This document shows, in pieces, positions 43,977 through 52,331 of a DNA stretch of 64,000 bases. The stretch comes from Deltaproteobacteria bacterium (GTDB lineage: Bacteria; Myxococcota_A; UBA9160; SZUA-336), in the NCBI GenBank assembly GCA_019311115.1, contig JAFDDB010000004.1, positions 5,121 through 69,120 on the forward strand, read 5' to 3'. The translations under genes were made by a program, and so were the position numbers. The notes under the pieces are model-generated. The model was not told the DNA's origin. It saw nothing but the letters and a program-made list of their open reading frames with translations, and ran no database searches. Every line of letters begins with the position of its first letter. The first letter of the stretch is position 1.

Positions 43977-45524
43977 GTGACCGGACGGCTCGTCTACGGA
44001 GCGGCCGCGCTCCTGCTCGCGGTCTCGTTGCTGGGTCTCGGATCGGCGACGCGTGCGGTGCATCACTACGCGGTCGAGATGCCGGGCGGAGTTCCCGCGA
44101 TCGTGTACGAGCCCGGTCCCGCGCGGCCGGTCCCGGGTCCGCCGCGCACCGGCGAGCCCGTTCCCGTCGTCGTGCTGGCGCACGGTTACATGGGCAACAC
44201 GTCGATGATGAGTTCACTCGCGCGGCGCCTGGCCCGGGCGGGCTACGCCTCGGTCGTGCTGGCGTTCCGCGGACACGACCGCAACCCGCGGCCGTTCTCG
44301 ACCGGCGGCTTCGACTTCGAGGGAATCCACCAGGACCTGGCGGCGGCCGTTCGCTTTGCACGTTCGCAGCCCGGCTTCGATCCCGAGCGCACCGCGGTGG
44401 CGGGCCACTCGATGGGCGCGTTCACCGCGCTCGAGTGGGCGAGCCGCGACCCCGCGGTCGACGCCGTGATCGCCATCGCGGGCGGCGCCCCGCCAGGTGG
44501 ACCCTATCCACCGCCGAACGTGCTGCTGGTCTGGGCGTCGGGAGACCCGAAGATGCTCCGCGACGGCGCGCGCGAGGCGGCCGCGTCGCTGGCGGGACTC
44601 CAGCGCGTCGTCCTCGACCGCACCTACGGCGAGTTCGCACGCGGCTCGGCGGTGCGCGCCAGCGAGGTGGACGGCGTCGACCACCTGACCATCCTCTACT
44701 CCGCGGACATGGCGCAGCGAGTCGTCGACTGGCTCGGGCAGACGCTCGGACCGGGCGTCGACGCGAGCGGCGCCACGGGCGACGGCCGCTTCGGTTGGAC
44801 GGGGCTCGGTCTCGTCTCCGCGCTGGTCCTGCTCTGGGGACTGGTCGGTCTGCTCGCGCCGTTCGTTCCGCGGGTCGAGAATCCCGTGACCACGTCGTCG
44901 CTGGGTGCGCTCGGCACACTGGCCGGAGCAATGACCGCGGGCGCGGTGCTGCTCGCGGGCGTCGACGCGGGCTCGCCCGGCGGCCCCTTCGGCTTCCTGC
45001 CTCTCGCCGTGTCGGCCCCCGTCTCGGGCTACCAGGCGCTCTGCGGAGTGCTGTTGCTGCTGGTGCTGGCGCACGGCGGCGCGCTCCGGCCCGGCCTGCG
45101 CGACTCGCGGATGTGGACCTGTGCGGGCGTCCTGCTGCTCGCGACCTACTTGATGATGGGGACGTTCCTCGAGCCCTACGCCTGGCGTTGGCTGACGCCG
45201 CAGCGCGCGCTGCACGCGTTCGTGCCGTTCGCGCTCATGCTGCCCTTCTTCGCCGCATTCGAGCTGCTGCTGCGCGGCGCGCGGCCGTGGGTGCCCATCG
45301 CCGGACGCATCGTCATCCTGGGCGTGATGGCGCTGGCCACGATCCTGCAACTGCTGCCGTTCGAGTTGTTCCTGGCGCTCGGCGGGTTCGTGGTCTTCTT
45401 CGCGCTCTTCGAGGCGATCGGCTACCGGGCGTCGCGCGTGGCGCCGAACCCGTGGCTCATGGGCGTGTACCAGGCGGGCTGGAGCGCGCTCGCGCACGCG
45501 TCGCTCTTCCCCGTCCTGGCGTAG
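43977..45524 (+). CDS. Alpha/beta-hydrolase fused to a C-terminal polytopic membrane domain (possibly CPBP/Abi-like)
   Basis: Signal peptide; nucleophile elbow GHSMG; C-terminal ~250 aa with six or more TM helices and an EExxxR-like FELLLRG. Confidence 0.55.
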   Translation: MTGRLVYGAAALLLAVSLLGLGSATRAVHHYAVEMPGGVPAIVYEPGPARPVPGPPRTGEPVPVVVLAHGYMGNTSMMSSLARRLARAGYASVVLAFRGHDRNPRPFSTGGFDFEGIHQDLAAAVRFARSQPGFDPERTAVAGHSMGAFTALEWASRDPAVDAVIAIAGGAPPGGPYPPPNVLLVWASGDPKMLRDGAREAAASLAGLQRVVLDRTYGEFARGSAVRASEVDGVDHLTILYSADMAQRVVDWLGQTLGPGVDASGATGDGRFGWTGLGLVSALVLLWGLVGLLAPFVPRVENPVTTSSLGALGTLAGAMTAGAVLLAGVDAGSPGGPFGFLPLAVSAPVSGYQALCGVLLLLVLAHGGALRPGLRDSRMWTCAGVLLLATYLMMGTFLEPYAWRWLTPQRALHAFVPFALMLPFFAAFELLLRGARPWVPIAGRIVILGVMALATILQLLPFELFLALGGFVVFFALFEAIGYRASRVAPNPWLMGVYQAGWSALAHASLFPVLA

Positions 45525-45993: not shown

Positions 45994-47139
45994 TCACGTC
46001 TGCGGGACGACGGGCTGGAGCGCGCCCATGCCGTCGTGGGGCCAGTCGATCGGTGGAAGCTGCATGCGGCCGAGTGCGCAGACCCGCGAGCCGCCGCCAG
46101 CGCGCGCGACCTCGAGCAGTCGCCGCTCCCCGCCGAAGCCCTCGTGACCCAGCGAAGATAGACCAGGTGCCAGCGAGGTGCAGCGCGCGGCGAGTCCGTC
46201 GATCCCCTCGACGGACACGAGGGGGACGTTGCGCAGCGTGCCCGGAGCGGCCGCTTCCCCGCCGGCGACGAAGACACCCCAGTCGCTGGAGCCCTCGCCG
46301 GACGGGAACCAGCACGCGGGGCTGCGCAACGCCTCTCTCGCACGCCGCTCGCGCAGCGCGACGGCCTCGCCGGCCTGCAGCGCCCCGCGTGGGATGTCGG
46401 TGCGCAGGCGCTCGAGCGCGGTCGAGAGCGCCTCGCCGAACGCCCCGGTGCGTTCTCCATCGGGGTCGTCGACGAAGATCCAGGCGGGCGACAGGCAGCC
46501 GCGACCGTCCCAGAGACAGACGTCGAGTGCGGCGCGTTCCGCCGCGCCGGCCAGGTCCGCGTCGCGTCCGACCGCGGCGGCCGAGAGCTTGTGTCCGTAG
46601 CCGACGAACGGGCGCGCTCCCGCGCGCCCGCGCAGGATCCGAACCGTCTCGTCGCTGCCGTACGCGACGACCGCGTCGGCCTCGTCGAGCGCGGAGTCGT
46701 CCGCGTCCAGCGCCAGCGCGTCCGCCACGCCCGCATCGCACTCCCGCAGCGAGGCGGCGAAGAGCCGGGGAGTCTCCGGATCGGACGACGCGGGCTTCGC
46801 CTGCACGGCGCAGCCCGCCAGCAGCGGAAGGGCGAGCGCGGAAAAGGTGCCGGTCGGCACGGTCCCGGCCAGCCAGACGGCGGCGAGCGCGGGTGCCCGC
46901 GCGTTCTCGAGTTCGCGGCGGCGCAGTGCGCGCAGGACGTCCGCAGTCCAGCCGTCGAGTCCGTCGCAGACGCCCCGTTCGATCGCGGCGCGCGACCAGA
47001 CCGGACACGCGCGGGCCAGCGCATCGCGCCACGCCGAGCCGGGAGCGCGCCAGGCCGCAAAGGTGCCCTCGAGCGCGGCGATCACCCGCTCCGCCGGCAG
47101 GACGCAGGCGGCCTCGCGTAGCGCCGCCGGGTCGCTCAC
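45994..47139 (-). CDS. LuxC-family acyl-CoA/acyl-protein reductase (fatty aldehyde-forming)
   Basis: YGSDETV...FVGYGHKLS...DVCLWDGRGCLSP, with the catalytic Cys in a GC(L)SP context as in LuxC (PF05893); GTG start overlaps the LuxE-like stop. Confidence 0.6.
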   Translation of the reverse strand: MSDPAALREAACVLPAERVIAALEGTFAAWRAPGSAWRDALARACPVWSRAAIERGVCDGLDGWTADVLRALRRRELENARAPALAAVWLAGTVPTGTFSALALPLLAGCAVQAKPASSDPETPRLFAASLRECDAGVADALALDADDSALDEADAVVAYGSDETVRILRGRAGARPFVGYGHKLSAAAVGRDADLAGAAERAALDVCLWDGRGCLSPAWIFVDDPDGERTGAFGEALSTALERLRTDIPRGALQAGEAVALRERRAREALRSPACWFPSGEGSSDWGVFVAGGEAAAPGTLRNVPLVSVEGIDGLAARCTSLAPGLSSLGHEGFGGERRLLEVARAGGGSRVCALGRMQLPPIDWPHDGMGALQPVVPQT

Positions 47140-48227
47140 CCTCCCCCCAGCAGCGCGTCGGCCGCGATCGAGCAGCCGCGCGCCTCGGCGCCGGCGATGC
47201 GTCCGCGCACCTCCAGGCCTTCCGCCGTTAGCGTGCCTTCGTCCGCGGTCTGTACCGCGAGGACCGATCCGGTGTTCGCCAGGTCGTAGTGGACCAGCAG
47301 TCCGGGCTCGCCTTCGGGGACGTCGCGCAGGTGTTCGGGGTCCACGACGCGCGTGCGTACCCAGGGAGGGATCCGCTTGCGCGTCGTGACGACGCCCGTG
47401 CGCAGCGTCGGCTCGTAGAACTGGCTGCCGAGCTCGCACATGCCGTACTGGTTGAGGATGGCGTCGGGGGGGACACCGAGCGCCTCGCTGATCCCCCCGT
47501 GCAGCTCTTCGCGCGAGAGCTCGCGCGACCGTCCCTTGAAGCCGCCGGTCTCCATCACGCGGCTGCCGTCGGGGAGCGCGAGCTTCAGGCCGACGGCGCG
47601 CATGCCGTCGATCAGGTGCACGAAGGCGAACGCGGTGCCGCAGATCGCCACCGGCGTGCGCGCGCGCTGCAGCGCCGTCATCGCGATCGCCATGTCGAGA
47701 CCGCCGTGGCCGAAGAGCATGGCGCTGTCGTCGGAGCCCAGGTCGCGGACCGCCGCGTCGAACATGTACGACAGCGACGAGTCGGGCGCGTCCCGCAGCG
47801 GCGTCGCCATCACCAGGATTCGCACGGGCTCGGGATCGGGACAGACCCAGGCGCGGAACGTCGCGCGGAGAGACGCGTCGTACAGTGCCAGTGTGTCCAG
47901 GTGCAGCTCGCCGCGGCGTTCGGTGGTGCTTCCGCTGGTCCGGAACACGCGCACGGTCTCCGCCTCGGGGAACGCCGCGAGCCGCGCCTCCTTGAACGCG
48001 CCCGTCGGCACCGACGGGATCTCCGACCAGTGTCCGACGCCTTCCGGCGCGCGTCCGAAGGCCGTGCAGAGCCTTCGGTACGGCTCGTTGTACTCGAACT
48101 GGTGCAGGAAGAGGGCGCGGGCCAGCGCGTCGAAGCGCGCTTCGTCGGCGGGCGCGTCCACGCCATCGGCGATCCAGGCCAGGACCTGGTCGTCCAGGTC
48201 CTTCCGGCTCTCGCGCGCCGCGCTCAC
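47136..48227 (-). CDS. LuxE-family acyl-protein synthetase (adenylate-forming)
   Basis: FRTSGSTTERRGELHLD (SSGTTG-like P-loop) and overall LuxE/PaaK-like topology; real start is an inner GTG of ORF 47136..49397, overlapping the aminotransferase stop. Confidence 0.6.
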   Translation of the reverse strand: MSAARESRKDLDDQVLAWIADGVDAPADEARFDALARALFLHQFEYNEPYRRLCTAFGRAPEGVGHWSEIPSVPTGAFKEARLAAFPEAETVRVFRTSGSTTERRGELHLDTLALYDASLRATFRAWVCPDPEPVRILVMATPLRDAPDSSLSYMFDAAVRDLGSDDSAMLFGHGGLDMAIAMTALQRARTPVAICGTAFAFVHLIDGMRAVGLKLALPDGSRVMETGGFKGRSRELSREELHGGISEALGVPPDAILNQYGMCELGSQFYEPTLRTGVVTTRKRIPPWVRTRVVDPEHLRDVPEGEPGLLVHYDLANTGSVLAVQTADEGTLTAEGLEVRGRIAGAEARGCSIAADALLGGG

Positions 48228-49480
48228 GCGGACAGCAGCTCCGCGAGGCGCGCGGTCGCGCCCTCGAGCAGGCTCTCCGCCACGTTGAGCGGCGGCGTCA
48301 GCGACAGCACCCGCCCGTCCGGACCCTCCTGGATCAGGATCCAACCCGACGCCAGCGCGTCTTCGACGACGCGCGCGGCGCGCGCGGCGGTGTCTAGTTC
48401 GATGCCCAGCATGAGCCCGCGGCCGCGCACGTCGACGACGCCGGGCAGTGGCGCCAGGGCGGAGCGAAGGTTCGCGAGCCAGCGCTCTCCGACCTCGGCG
48501 GCGCGGCCGGGCAGGTCGTCGCGCGCGAGCACGTCGAGCACCGCGCACGCCACGGCGCAGCCGAGCGGGTTCCCGAGGTGCGTGCTGGTGTGCCGCGCCT
48601 CCTCGCCGCGCTCTCCCCAGCCCTTCATCACGCCGGGGCGACCGGCGCAGGCCGAGATCGGAAAGCCGCCGCCGAGCGCCTTGCCGACCGTCACCAGGTC
48701 GGGAACCACGCCGTCGTGCTCGCACGCCAGCCAGCGTCCGGTGCGTCCCAGTCCGGTGTAGACCTCGTCGGCGATCAGCAGCGCGTCCTCGTCGTCGGCG
48801 ATCGCGCGCAGGTCGGACAGGAACCCGGCGGGCGCGGGGTGCGCGCCGCCTCGCCCCTGGACCGGCTCGACCAGGATCGCGCCCGCCGCGTCGGCGCGGA
48901 CGGCACGCCGCACGGCGTCGGCGTCTCCGAAGCGCACGAAGGTGGTGCGCCCGGGCAGCCGCTCGGCGAAGGGCTCGCGGAACAGCGCAGCGTGCGTCGC
49001 GTCGAGGGCTCCGAGTCCCAGCCCGTGGTACGCATCCTCGAACGCCACCACGTGTGCGCGTCCCGTCACGACGAGGGCGGTCTTGAGCGCGGACTCGACC
49101 GCGTCCGATCCCGAGGCCGACAGGATCGGCATGCCCAGGTCGGCCGGCAGCCGCCTCGTGAGCGACTCCAGCAGAGCCACGCGCACCGTCGCCGGGTGGA
49201 CGTCGGAGAGCGCGTGCGGGAGCACCGCGGCCTGCTCCTGCAGCGCGCGGGTGGCCTCGGGGTGGGCATGGCCGATCGCGGCCACCCCGAATCCGGCGAG
49301 CAGGTCGACGTAGCGGTTGCCGTCGGCGTCCCAGACGTTGGAGCCGTTCGCCCGCTCCCAGAAGATCGCCCCCGGCATCGCGCTGACCTCGGGGCACTCG
49401 ACGTGGTGCAGGCGCTCGAGCAGGGCCTGCGAGGACTTGCCGGGGACTTCGCCGCGGATCTCCGGGGGCTGCTGGCTCAT
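48224..49480 (-). CDS. Class III (omega-type) PLP aminotransferase
   Basis: GSDAVESALK, DEVYTGLGRTG and TVGKALGGG (PLP lysine) motifs. Confidence 0.75.
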   Translation of the reverse strand: MSQQPPEIRGEVPGKSSQALLERLHHVECPEVSAMPGAIFWERANGSNVWDADGNRYVDLLAGFGVAAIGHAHPEATRALQEQAAVLPHALSDVHPATVRVALLESLTRRLPADLGMPILSASGSDAVESALKTALVVTGRAHVVAFEDAYHGLGLGALDATHAALFREPFAERLPGRTTFVRFGDADAVRRAVRADAAGAILVEPVQGRGGAHPAPAGFLSDLRAIADDEDALLIADEVYTGLGRTGRWLACEHDGVVPDLVTVGKALGGGFPISACAGRPGVMKGWGERGEEARHTSTHLGNPLGCAVACAVLDVLARDDLPGRAAEVGERWLANLRSALAPLPGVVDVRGRGLMLGIELDTAARAARVVEDALASGWILIQEGPDGRVLSLTPPLNVAESLLEGATARLAELLSA

Positions 49481-49607: not shown

Positions 49608-49922
49608 ATGCAGTGGTTCGGAATGCTCCTGGTCGTGGCTTCGCTGGTGCTCGGCAGCGGTGGAGTCGCCTATCGCTCGCATGCGAGCAGCGTGGTGGGC
49701 GGACACGAGCAGTTCGGCATGACACCGGCCCAGGGCCTCGGGACCCCGGCCACCGCGCCCGTGGTCCGGGCGGCGGCGTGCCCGGCCCCGCAACCGCTCG
49801 AGATCCGGCTGCCGAAGCGCGCACGCCGGCACGTCGTGAGCCTGACCAACCGCGGCTACAACTACCGCGGCGGGCTCGCCGACCTCTCGCGCACGCAGCC
49901 TCCGGCCAGTCCGCGCGACTAG
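49608..49922 (+). CDS. Small secreted hypothetical protein
   Basis: GGAGG RBS then MQWFGMLLVVASLVLGSGGVAYRS signal-like N-terminus. Confidence 0.35.
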   Translation: MQWFGMLLVVASLVLGSGGVAYRSHASSVVGGHEQFGMTPAQGLGTPATAPVVRAAACPAPQPLEIRLPKRARRHVVSLTNRGYNYRGGLADLSRTQPPASPRD

Positions 49923-50401
49923 CCGGTAGACCGCGTCCCGCCCGGGGAAGGCCTGGGCTCCGGCGGAGCGGCATCGAGTCCGCGCCGCAGTCCGCGCCAC
50001 AGCAGTCCGTGCGCCACCCCGACCGCGACCACCGCAGGCAGGTCTCCGGCCCCGAGCCAGCCGGCCCCGAGCCAGCGAAAGGGCGCGGCGCAGAGAAGCG
50101 GGAGCGCCAGCGCCCAGAGTGAGACGCGCTGGTACTGCCAGGGAGCGAGGCGCGGTGCGCGCCCGACGAAGTGCCCCGCCACCGAGAGCAGCGCATGGCA
50201 TGCGAGCGGGACGGCGAGGGAGCCCAGCGGGACGGCGAGCAGCGTCGCCGCCAGTGCCAGCAGCGCGCCGTAGCGTCCACCCCGGCGCGCTCCCAGGATC
50301 CGCCGCAGCGCGACGCCGTCGCCGGCCACCACCCCGCGCAGGAGGCGCGGCACCTCGGCGCGGGCGACGAAGACCCGGCGCTCGGGGGTCCGCGCGCTCA
50401 C
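49919..50401 (-). CDS. Small polytopic membrane protein
   Basis: C-terminal part of ORF 49919..51445; GTG start overlapping the upstream stop; three hydrophobic helices. Confidence 0.35.
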   Translation of the reverse strand: MSARTPERRVFVARAEVPRLLRGVVAGDGVALRRILGARRGGRYGALLALAATLLAVPLGSLAVPLACHALLSVAGHFVGRAPRLAPWQYQRVSLWALALPLLCAAPFRWLGAGWLGAGDLPAVVAVGVAHGLLWRGLRRGLDAAPPEPRPSPGGTRSTG

Positions 50402-51246
50402 CGCAGCTCCGCCCGCAGCTCGGACTCGAGCTCGGCCAGCGAGCGGTGGTAGGTCCGGTCGAGTGCCCGGTCGAGGTTCCGCGTGCGCGCGAGTTCCTGG
50501 CAGAGCCAGCGCAGCTTCTGCTCGCCGTGGCGCCGGGCCAGGTACTCGATCATGCCGTGCGACTCCAGGTAGGCGAGCGAGGCGCTGTCCCCGGAGAGGT
50601 GCGCGAAGCTCGGGCCGGCCAGCGACTCGAGAGGCAGCCAGGTCCCCTGGCGCGAGGCTTCGGTCAGCACACGGTACTGCCCCGGGCCGAGCCGCCGGCC
50701 CATGGCCTGCGCCTCGACGTACTCGGCCAGCCCCTCGTTGAGCCAGGCCGGGAAGAGCCCGGGGCCGACCTCGGCCTGGATCGCCGCGTGGGTGTACTCG
50801 TGGTTGAGCGTCCCCGCGAGGGCGGCGTCGACCCGGGTCGCGCCGCGCACGTGGATGGCCCCGTCGAAGAACCCGACCGCCCGGAATCCGAAGTAGCCCT
50901 GGTACTTGGCGTCGAAGACCCCCGGGTCGTAGACCGACACGCGAACGTGGTGACCCGGCCAGATCCCGAGGAGGTTTCCGACCCGGTCGTAGGCGCGCTC
51001 GAGGATGTCGAGAAGCTGCAGCTCGAAACGGCGCCAGCCGTGGGGGCCCGAGTACTTCTCGATGTCCACGTCCTGGTACAGACGGAAGTGCGCCGACTTT
51101 CGCTCCTGGAAGTGGCCGTCCGGCTCGGCCCGGGCTTCGGGTGCGAGGGTCGAGGCGAAGCCCGCTGTGACGAGGGCCACCGACAGGAGGACGAGCCACA
51201 CCCCCCGCGTTGTCTGGATCGAAGCTCGGCGGCTGGGGGTCGGCAT
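50398..51246 (-). CDS. Secreted putative Zn-metallopeptidase (HExxH)
   Basis: Signal peptide VWLVLLSVALVTAGFAST; HEYTHA (HExxH) plus downstream NEGLAEY. Confidence 0.5.
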   Translation of the reverse strand: MPTPSRRASIQTTRGVWLVLLSVALVTAGFASTLAPEARAEPDGHFQERKSAHFRLYQDVDIEKYSGPHGWRRFELQLLDILERAYDRVGNLLGIWPGHHVRVSVYDPGVFDAKYQGYFGFRAVGFFDGAIHVRGATRVDAALAGTLNHEYTHAAIQAEVGPGLFPAWLNEGLAEYVEAQAMGRRLGPGQYRVLTEASRQGTWLPLESLAGPSFAHLSGDSASLAYLESHGMIEYLARRHGEQKLRWLCQELARTRNLDRALDRTYHRSLAELESELRAELR

Positions 51247-51359
51247 CGCAACTCCGGGGAAATGGCCTCGCGCCCTTGCGCTCGGTTCCGTGCATGTTAT
51301 CTGACGAACTGCGCGTTCTGACCTTCAGCGAGCGCGCTGAATGGGGAGGAGGAGTCCAC

Positions 51360-51560
51360 ATGGCAGCGAGGAAGAAGGCGAAGAAGGCCGGCGACCCGAT
51401 GATCATCTCGAAGTCGCGCGTCAAGGCGGCCGTCAAGAAGTGCAACGTTGGTGCAGAGTTCTACGGCGCGCTCGAGGGCGAGGTCCGCGACCTGATCAAG
51501 AAGGCCGAGGCCCGGTGCACGGGCAACAAGCGCAAGACCCTGCGCGCCGCCGACGTATAG
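51360..51560 (+). CDS. Bacterial singlet histone-fold protein (HBb/DUF1931-like) with a lysine-rich N-terminal tail
   Basis: Strong RBS GGGAGGAGGAG; MAARKKAKKAGDPMIISKSRVKAAVKKCNVGAEFYGALEGEVRDLIKKAEARCTGNKRKTLRAADV has the alpha1-L1-alpha2-L2-alpha3 histone-fold pattern, including the RKT-x-x-AxD ending. Confidence 0.6.
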   Translation: MAARKKAKKAGDPMIISKSRVKAAVKKCNVGAEFYGALEGEVRDLIKKAEARCTGNKRKTLRAADV

Positions 51561-51687
51561 AGTCGACGGAGAATCCGATCGACCGGGCGCCGGAGGGGAC
51601 GACCCCACCGGCGCTCGATTCGTTTGGGCCCAGCGCGTCGAGCCGTCCGAGCGGCTAGAATTGCCGCATCCGGCCCCGATCGTCCTG

Positions 51688-51735
51688 CCCACCGCGCTGC
51701 CCACCGCGCTGCCCACCGCGTTACCCACCGCGTTA
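51688..51735. repeat. Perfect 12-bp tandem repeat x4 (CCCACCGCGCTG x2, CCCACCGCGTTA x2) immediately upstream of the ECF sigma gene
   Basis: Read directly: CCCACCGCGCTGCCCACCGCGCTGCCCACCGCGTTACCCACCGCGTTA. Confidence 0.85.
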
Positions 51736-51758
51736 CCGAAGGGGCCTCCGGAGCGTAG

Positions 51759-52331
51759 ATGTCGGAGGAACGAGACGAACGGCGGGCCCGGGAGGGTCGC
51801 TGGTCGGAGCTGATGGCTGCCGGCCAGGACGGCGACGCCCCGGCGTACGAGCAGCTTCTCCGCGAGCTGCTGATCCCCCTGCGGGCCTTCGCCATGAGCC
51901 GGCTCGGAGATCCCGCCAGTGTCGACGACGTCGTGCAGAACGTATTGCTCTCCATCCACCGCGCGCGCCACAGCTACCGGCCCGAACGTCCGTTCGGTCC
52001 CTGGCTCTGGACGATCGCGCGCAACGCGGTCACCGACTCGCTGCGTGCGCGCTCGACGCGCCTGCGGCGCGAGCTGCCGATCGACGAGCTCGAGGGAATC
52101 GACGAGCCCTCGGTCGAGCAGCAGCCCCAGCTCGCCCTCTCTCCGGCGTTGCGGGCCGCCCTCGACGGACTGCCGCCGGCGCAGCGCCAGGCGGTCGAGC
52201 TGATGCACGTGCACCAGCTCAGCGTGGCCGAGGCGGCGGAGCGCGCGGGGGTGAGCCCCGGCGCGCTCAAGGTGCGCGCGCACCGCGGCTACAAGGCGCT
52301 GCGCGTGGCGCTGGCGGACGAGAAGCCATGA
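51759..52331 (+). CDS. ECF (group IV) RNA polymerase sigma factor
   Basis: Region 2 DVVQNVLLSIHRARHSY and region 4 LPPAQRQAVELMHVHQLSVAEAAERAGVSPGALKVRAHRG. Confidence 0.8.
   Translation: MSEERDERRAREGRWSELMAAGQDGDAPAYEQLLRELLIPLRAFAMSRLGDPASVDDVVQNVLLSIHRARHSYRPERPFGPWLWTIARNAVTDSLRARSTRLRRELPIDELEGIDEPSVEQQPQLALSPALRAALDGLPPAQRQAVELMHVHQLSVAEAAERAGVSPGALKVRAHRGYKALRVALADEKP

Follow-up and report, generated by a model that had tools for sequence, protein, structure and literature searches.

A bacterial histone with a lysine-rich tail and the sequence signature of tetrameric FtF histones

A 64-kb stretch of DNA (64,000 nucleotides, hereafter the window) from an uncultured Myxococcota bacterium (recorded as Deltaproteobacteria bacterium) encodes a 66-residue protein, MAARKKAKKAGDPMIISKSRVKAAVKKCNVGAEFYGALEGEVRDLIKKAEARCTGNKRKTLRAADV, that we assign with a probability of about 0.8 to the face-to-face (FtF) members of the α3-truncated prokaryotic histones, and for which we infer, by homology, tetramer formation and DNA wrapping. 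The protein carries the sequence features that define the FtF group, and not those of the group to which HBb belongs (Table 1). FtF histones form the largest group within the α3-truncated histone family, with HTkC and HLp being the two solved FtF histones. To our knowledge, bacterial histones have been recognised only recently and just two have been characterised biochemically, namely, the DNA-bending dimer HBb and the DNA-wrapping tetramer HLp.

Table 1. Features of the histone locus, in window positions
Feature	Position	Strand	Basis or remark
Conserved upstream block CCCTTGCGCTCG	51273..51284	+	holds candidate -35 TTGCGC 51276-51281
Conserved upstream block ATGTTATCTGACG	51294..51306	+	holds candidate extended -10 TGT-TATCTG, TATCTG 51298-51303
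Shine-Dalgarno GGGGAGGAGGAG	51343..51354	+	AGGAGG 51347-51352, 7 nt before ATG
Predicted 66-aa FtF-type histone CDS, stop included	51360..51560	+	ATG 51360, TAG 51558-51560
Disordered basic N-terminal tail, residues 1-13 (MAARKKAKKAGDP)	51360..51398	+	pLDDT below 50-68, no secondary structure
Predicted helix α1, residues 18-28	51411..51443	+	DSSP of AlphaFold2 model
Predicted long central helix α2, residues 33-55, dimerisation helix	51456..51524	+	DSSP of model
FtF signature R52-x3-N56-x-R58-K59-T60-x4-D65-V66-COOH	51513..51557	+	end of α2, loop L2, one-turn α3
Conserved GC-rich stem-loop	51584..51617	+	24 nt past stop; terminator-like or 3'-end stabiliser

The histone ORF is a conserved native gene

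The ORF at 51360-51560 is a real, conserved and native gene, and its start, stop and translation are as described in an earlier reading of the window made from its letters alone (the sequence-only reading). The G+C content of the window is 71% and long overlapping ORFs crowd both strands. In such a genome, with spurious ORFs in every frame, the histone ORF might itself be a product of chance, and several longer ORFs do overlap the region on both strands. This explanation is, however, already refuted by 1719 homologous database proteins at E<=1e-3 (best E = 1e-33) with invariant functional motifs, by a confident histone-fold match, by the conservation of the Shine-Dalgarno sequence and start codon, and by a pattern of substitution across codon positions that is specific to the histone frame. 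Indeed, among the 27 orthologous loci, which share a core of 52 codons without gaps, 7590 differences fall on the third codon position, compared with 3159 on the first and 2951 on the second, the synonymous share of the histone frame is the highest of all six frames, and more than one codon is used at 18 of the 23 invariant residues. The GC3 of the gene (0.925) is comparable to that of the adjoining genes, indicating that it is native rather than recently acquired.

Three ORFs overlap the histone gene, at 51297-52283 (-, 328 aa), 49919-51445 (-, 508 aa) and 51210-51560 (+, 116 aa). These are high-GC shadow ORFs or over-extended starts without conservation support, and could lead gene callers to mis-annotate the histone locus. 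The last of them begins at a TTG codon at 51210, which we rejected as the start of the histone because the in-frame stretch ahead of the ATG shows no conservation among relatives and because the Shine-Dalgarno sequence and the conserved MAA(R/K)KK start suit the ATG at 51360. We note that two orthologues (L007 and L009) apparently start with GTG (VAKRKK... and VAKAKK..., respectively) instead of ATG, and that over-called N-terminal extensions are found in many database entries of the histone family.

The predicted structure is a histone fold with a one-turn α3

An AlphaFold2 model of the monomer, built from 62 homologues, has a mean pLDDT of 71, a moderate value that is expected for an obligate oligomer modelled as a monomer. 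DSSP assigns helices α1 and α2 (Table 1) and an α3 that comprises only residues 63-65, whereas the N-terminus is disordered. Helix α2 aligns without gaps to α2 of HTkC and HLp, which has been described as having one turn fewer than α2 of HMfB (Hu et al. 2025, PMC12701072). With α3 confined to residues 63-65 and the chain ending at residue 66, the model has the form of the α3-truncated histones, in which α3 comprises only 3-4 residues and α2 lacks approximately one turn relative to nucleosomal histones (Schwab et al. 2024, PMC11390915). The predicted fold is thus a histone fold with a one-turn α3.

A Foldseek search of the PDB with this model places chains of the prokaryotic histones HTkC, HLp and HBb in the top eight positions, followed by nucleosome chains, mostly H4, from rank 9 (H4 from rank 10). 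The FtF histones HTkC and HLp match with TM-scores, normalised by target, of 0.78 at 43% identity and 0.79 at 30% identity, respectively. Dimeric HBb occupies ranks 5-8 with a TM-score of ~0.70 (normalised by target) and 24-25% identity, and nucleosomal eukaryotic H4, at ~24% identity, has a lower TM-score than HBb. The sequence-only reading had proposed a singlet bacterial histone-fold protein and had named structure prediction as a check. The proposal holds, both in the AlphaFold2 helices and in the Foldseek matches, and a histone rather than a non-histone fold is predicted. The helix anatomy that it gave needs revision at the C-terminus, where RKT belongs to loop L2 and α3 is limited to the last turn (63-65).

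Cys28, which is invariant among close homologues, was considered as a redox switch and rejected, since the corresponding column in the wider family contains C, L, V, M or F and aligns to F25 of HLp. The column is rather to be read, from the alignment, as a hydrophobic packing position.

The C-terminal signature places the protein with HTkC and HLp

The FtF category is formally defined by a torus-shaped tetramer, with the interface Arg and Asn located at logo positions 48 and 52, respectively (Schwab et al. 2024, PMC11390915). The elements that build the tetramer are an Arg near the end of α2, an Asn four residues later and the Arg of the RxT motif together with the C-terminal carboxylate, which, one residue past the clamp Asp, is placed to pair with the interface Arg on the other dimer. 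In D4GZE0, these elements are R41/N45/R47/D54, with the C-terminus at residue 55, and in HTkC the mutation R45A abolishes tetramers (Schwab et al. 2024, PMC11390915). In HLp, the tetramer residues are R49/N53/R55/D62/F63, where F63 is C-terminal (Hu et al. 2025, PMC12701072).

Each of these elements has a counterpart in the window histone. R58, T60 and D65 form the RxTxxxxD motif, comprising the RD clamp, which structures L2, and the Thr that contacts DNA, R52 and N56 are situated 6 and 2 residues before the Arg of RxT, and the chain terminates at V66, one residue past the clamp Asp. The signature, from R52 to the V66 end, is invariant among the 62 close homologues, and the full form including the D-x-COOH end is present in 119 of 120 close homologues as well as in 106 of the best 150 representatives from an exhaustive search, where most of the signature-negative representatives are fragments or frameshifted calls. 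In the 112 intact distant representatives, R58, T60 and D65 are each retained in 112, R52 in 110 and N56 in 108.

Sequence comparison points in the same direction. A phmmer search of the PDB sequences with the single protein finds HTkC (9F2C) at 9e-6, and a profile of the 62-sequence family finds HTkC at 2e-9 and HLp (9QT0) at 3e-4, whereas the profile search at E<=10 returns neither HBb nor the nucleosomal archaeal histones. The hhalign probability is 97% for HTkC and 6.8% for HBb, and the best reference is HTkC or HLp for 143 of the 150 best distant representatives. The direct phmmer comparison with HBb, for which we used a sequence that exactly matches 8FVX, yields 6.5 bits and a non-significant E of 0.47 in a database of 709 sequences.

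These results bear on the alternative that the window histone is a bacterial dimer of the HBb/Bd0055 type, which would bend DNA sharply in the manner of HU/IHF without wrapping it. HBb has the same α3-truncated fold, matches the model in Foldseek, and has both the RKT-x4-D motif and the lysines of α1 in common with the window histone. It does not, however, cluster with the window family in sequence, and it bears Ser and Asp at the positions of the invariant R52 and N56. In addition, HBb continues for 6 residues past the Asp and therefore cannot present a C-terminal carboxylate at this point of the interface. These are exactly the residues by which Schwab et al. separate the dimer and FtF groups, and we consider an HBb-like dimer unlikely. 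The likeness to Bd0055 put forward in the sequence-only reading is not borne out, since both the protein and the family profile match HTkC and HLp rather than HBb, and since the Arg/Asn/carboxylate signature, which is lacking in HBb-type dimers, is present. One observation that speaks against a tetramer is that the secondary tetramer contacts S52 and T61 of HLp correspond to G55 and A64 in the window histone.

Pfam cannot classify this histone family. Scans of the protein against Pfam and NCBIfam return no family even at E<=10, and Pfam scans of the 62 homologues return faint sub-threshold hits for only 3, namely, PF00808 for 2 of 62 at E 0.019 or weaker and PF09123 for 1 of 62 at E 0.035. A comparison with PF00808 and DUF1931, which the sequence-only reading had recommended, was therefore uninformative. 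The window histone falls outside the CBFD_NFYB_HMF (PF00808)/nucleosomal archaeal class, having no Pfam match and a truncated α3, and outside the DUF1931 (PF09123) class, having no match and being a 66-aa singlet with conserved DNA-contact residues.

Comparison with structurally characterised histones

HTkC, the FtF histone of Thermococcus kodakarensis (PDB 9F2C; Schwab et al., Nat Commun 2024, PMC11390915), is the closest solved relative of the window histone by sequence. Both begin α2 with EFY-x-ALE-x-EV, and the tetramerisation residue R45 of HTkC corresponds to R52. Unlike the window histone, HTkC is archaeal and tail-less, has an L1 loop that is 4 residues longer, and carries a Glu at the position of N56 and a His at that of the clamp Asp.

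HLp, the FtF histone of Leptospira perolatii (PDB 9QT0/9QT1/9QT2; Hu et al., Nat Commun 2025, PMC12701072), resembles the window histone in being a bacterial, α3-truncated singlet of ~65 aa with a short N-terminal tail. The R49/N53/R55/D62/F63-COOH of HLp is equivalent to R52/N56/R58/D65/V66-COOH, and the DNA-contact positions are common to both. The two differ in that identity is only ~30%, the L1 loop of the window histone is two residues shorter, and L2 reads RKT, as in nucleosomal histones and HBb, rather than RTT. Moreover, the window histone has a longer and much more basic tail (AARKKAKKA, compared with NAEKD in HLp). HLp comes from a different phylum and a different gene neighbourhood, the window locus being without SMC/MAP neighbours, and the window histone is known from its sequence.

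HBb (Bd0055) of Bdellovibrio bacteriovorus (PDB 8FVX, 8CMP), the reference for the 'bacterial dimer' histones, is likewise a bacterial singlet with the α3-truncated fold, the RKT-x4-D clamp and a basic α1, but is a DNA-bending dimer rather than a tetramer and, besides the interface residues and C-terminal extension discussed above, lacks the basic tail. The archaeal nucleosomal histones (HMfB) and eukaryotic H4 share the histone fold and the RxTxxxxD/RD-clamp motif with the window histone, whereas their α3 spans ~10 residues, their α2 is longer, and they polymerise into superhelical (hyper)nucleosomes by a different dimer-dimer geometry.

The basic tail, DNA contacts and a proposed mechanism

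The window histone has a pI of 10.2 and a net charge of +11. Its lysine-rich N-terminal tail was recognised in the sequence-only reading, and the model supports this by leaving residues 1-13 disordered. In the 99 close homologues with an MA start, the tails comprise 11-21 aa with 31% Lys and 30% Ala, and the median net charge of the tail among close homologues is +4. The tail begins with M-A-(A/K)-(K/R)-K-K in 95 of 119 close homologues. Positive "H3-like" tails are carried by most bacterial FtF histones, without a sequence common to bacteria as a whole (Schwab et al. 2024, PMC11390915), and the conserved start is, judging from these alignments, a feature at the level of the clade.

HLp contacts DNA through A13/S14/K15, K17 and K21, through T27/G29 of L1 and through T56/T57 of L2 (Hu et al. 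2025, PMC12701072). The contacts of α1 map onto K18/S19/R20, K22 and K26 of the window histone, and those of the two loops align with N29-A32 and with K59/T60. K18, R20 and K22 are invariant in the close-homologue alignment, as are most of the aligned DNA-contact positions. The contact positions of HLp are either kept or more basic in the window histone, with several of them being more basic.

HLp assembles into a stable tetramer around which ~60 bp of DNA wraps, and it compacts DNA and changes the organisation of the E. coli nucleoid (Hu et al. 2025, PMC12701072). By homology with HLp and HTkC, on which every step of the following scheme is based, two chains of the window histone would form a handshake dimer via α2. 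Two such dimers would then join face to face via R52, N56, R58 and the V66 carboxylate, producing a torus-shaped tetramer of ~28.6 kDa. Approximately 60 bp of DNA would wrap non-specifically around the basic rim of the tetramer, contacted by K18/S19/R20, K22, K26, N29-G31 of the L1 loop and K59/T60 of L2, and the flexible Lys/Ala-rich tail probably adds electrostatic contacts with the DNA.

Shine-Dalgarno sequence and candidate promoter

The very strong ribosome-binding site noted in the sequence-only reading is confirmed by the AGGAGG upstream of the ATG (Table 1), and a GGAGG-type site precedes the start codon in nearly all of the 27 orthologous loci. Further upstream, the blocks CCCTTGCG(C/T)TCG and ATGTTATCTGACG are invariant in six closest-clade sequences (86-95% protein identity). 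In close relatives, the 10 nt between the two blocks vary in sequence and are constant in length. The -35 block is largely retained in L002 (80% protein identity), with the sequence farther upstream having diverged, and no other part of the intergenic region is as A/T-rich as the block at 51294-51306.

The hexamers that the sequence-only reading proposed as a promoter are present within these invariant blocks, with TTATCT/TATCTG at 51297-51303 and TATCTG located 16 nt after the candidate -35. Their match to the consensus is, however, at the level of chance: TTGCGC agrees with TTGACA at only 3 of 6 positions, the candidate TTGCGC-N16-TATCTG agrees with the sigma-70 consensus at 6 of 12, a value reached by 97% of random 260-nt windows, and a sigma-70 consensus scan of 51150-51800 called no promoter. 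We retain the candidate in view of the invariant blocks and the constant length of the variable spacer, which plausibly reflect a real, non-consensus promoter. The 113-nt intergenic region is common to a divergent peptidase gene, making the assignment of the promoter to the histone gene uncertain. The only terminator-like call of the scan, at 51277-51294, precedes the gene and can hardly be a terminator of it.

Sigma-70-like promoters matching the consensus at 9 or more of 12 positions (for example, TTGACG-N16-TATGAT) are present in 19 of the 27 orthologous upstream regions, compared with 0.2% of control windows from the same loci. As gauged by agreement with the consensus, the strength of the promoter differs sharply between clades: many relatives (L003-L027) have a near-perfect TTGACx-N16-TATGAT, whereas in the window clade (window 51247-51359) a poor yet strictly conserved TTGCGC-N16-TATCTG follows after TGT. 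This contrast may stem from differences in regulation or in sigma-factor preference.

Transcription unit and neighbouring genes

Downstream of the stop codon, the stem-loop has a minimum free energy of -31.2 kcal/mol (z = -3.1). In close relatives, its outer stem is conserved, whereas the inner stem and loop change with pairing retained. The terminator scan did not call this stem-loop, the U-tract of which is poor; most of the more distant relatives have canonical hairpin plus U-run terminators directly past the stop codon. The histone gene appears to be monocistronic, with its own promoter region, a strong Shine-Dalgarno sequence and a 3' stem-loop, as judged from the promoters and terminators of the relatives, from the conserved blocks and stem-loop, and from the separate TAGAAT of the sigma gene. 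This layout is as expected of an abundantly made nucleoid-associated protein.

The gene is flanked by a divergent Peptidase_MA_2 gene, an ECF sigma/NrsF pair, a pseudouridine synthase gene and a YdjC-family gene, in an order that is kept only in the nearest clade and differs in more distant relatives. TAGAAT at 51656-51661, which lies ahead of the downstream ECF sigma gene (start codon 51759) and is conserved in relatives, looks like the -10 element of the sigma operon itself. In L032 and L033, a zinc-type ADH gene (at 1851-2735 and 768-1748 of these loci, respectively) separates the histone and ECF sigma genes, so that their adjacency is not obligatory. On the strength of this insertion, the separate TAGAAT and the different neighbours in distant relatives, we rejected a coupling of the histone to ECF sigma/NrsF, and at the compared loci we see no sign of a functional link between the histone and its neighbours.

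The same evidence weighs on the proposal that the histone fold serves a role outside chromatin, either as a DUF1931-type scaffold or as a specific regulator of adjacent genes, either the peptidase gene or ECF sigma/NrsF. As Schwab et al. point out, prokaryotic histone-fold proteins need not all organise genomes; moreover, NCBI labels the protein as 'DUF1931 domain-containing protein', and the order peptidase_MA_2/histone/ECF sigma-NrsF is kept in the closest relatives. Yet this synteny is restricted to the nearest clade, with the LIISK...KAVDL relatives having other neighbours, and it is broken by the ADH gene, while the ECF sigma gene has a conserved -10-like element of its own. Moreover, PF09123 is unmatched, and true DUF1931 histones are pseudodimers without DNA-binding residues, whereas the protein studied here is a singlet with a charge of +11 in which these residues are all conserved. 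We therefore regard a non-chromatin role as very improbable and retain the assignment as an FtF histone.

Two further observations concern the surroundings of the gene. Between the histone stem-loop and the start of the ECF sigma gene, just 3' of TAGAAT, four tandem copies of the 12-nt unit CTGCCCACCGCG occupy 51685-51732; the repeat is present in L001 and absent from the closest relatives L028-L031, and so is a lineage-specific expansion. On the minus strand at 45994-49480 (coordinates converted from L001, position 1 of which is window position 45360), genes for a LuxC-like acyl-CoA reductase, a LuxE-like acyl-protein synthetase and a class-III aminotransferase stand side by side after a glyoxalase-family gene. 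This group may encode a fatty aldehyde/amine pathway.

Distribution and existing annotation

Over 10.2 kb, the window has 99.95% identity to L001, a contig from an independent metagenome (JGI sample 3300033154). The 26 related loci from species-representative genomes belong nearly all to Myxococcota or "Deltaproteobacteria" MAGs, the exceptions being single bins labelled Planctomycetota and "Spirochaetales". This taxonomy fits the FtF assignment, as FtF histones have been reported in the phylum: Myxococcota is among the bacterial phyla with FtF histones, and most bacterial FtF proteins come from uncultured organisms (Schwab et al. 2024, PMC11390915; Hu et al. 2025, PMC12701072). An exhaustive profile search found 495 representative clusters (50% identity) at E<=1e-3, 86 of them at E<=1e-10. 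The exact protein is in NCBI nr (MBW2280476.1/MBW2413205.1) under the label 'DUF1931 domain-containing', which its sequence suggests is a loose one, and JGI labels its relatives as "histone H3/H4".

The exhaustive search also returned eight chains of ~117-122 aa with tandem FtF-like folds (P0164, P0169, P0180, P0184, P0187, P0204, P0220 and P0256). Both halves contain R-x3-N-x-R-x-T-x4-D, whereas the C-terminus at Asp+1 is found in the second half only. These chains look like natural pseudodimers of the FtF type.

Discussion

The window protein adds a new and uncharacterised member to a published family, and its tail is more basic than that of the characterised HLp. The novelty implied by the sequence-only reading was overestimated, as FtF histones of Myxococcota and positive tails had both been published, and for the same reasons (the family, its presence in Myxococcota and the positive tails) the current picture of bacterial histones is unchanged.

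Using the profile of the histone family and HU/IHF of E. coli as probes, we find neither a second histone nor HU/IHF in the 64-kb window, a result that bears on this stretch rather than on the genome as a whole. It is conceivable, if decidedly speculative, that in this lineage the FtF histone could be a principal and regulated chromatin protein, the conserved N-terminus of which (mature AARKK..., H3-like) could be the target of reversible modification or of a reader protein. If true, such targeting of the tail would give bacteria a counterpart to the regulation of histone tails. On the same speculative reading, the unusually weak but strictly conserved promoter of the window clade might indicate that expression is controlled rather than constitutive.

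An annotation problem is also apparent, in that labels such as 'DUF1931' and 'histone H3/H4' hide the functionally important distinction between dimeric and tetrameric histones, which can be read from the 15-residue C-terminal signature. Judged from sequence, the locus extends the tetrameric type by a well-delimited clade in Myxococcota (the 495 representative clusters of the exhaustive search), in which the interface and DNA-contact residues are all intact and the tail is more strongly basic than in HLp. This clade is a reasonable candidate for testing the contribution of a basic tail to the wrapping of DNA by bacterial histones.
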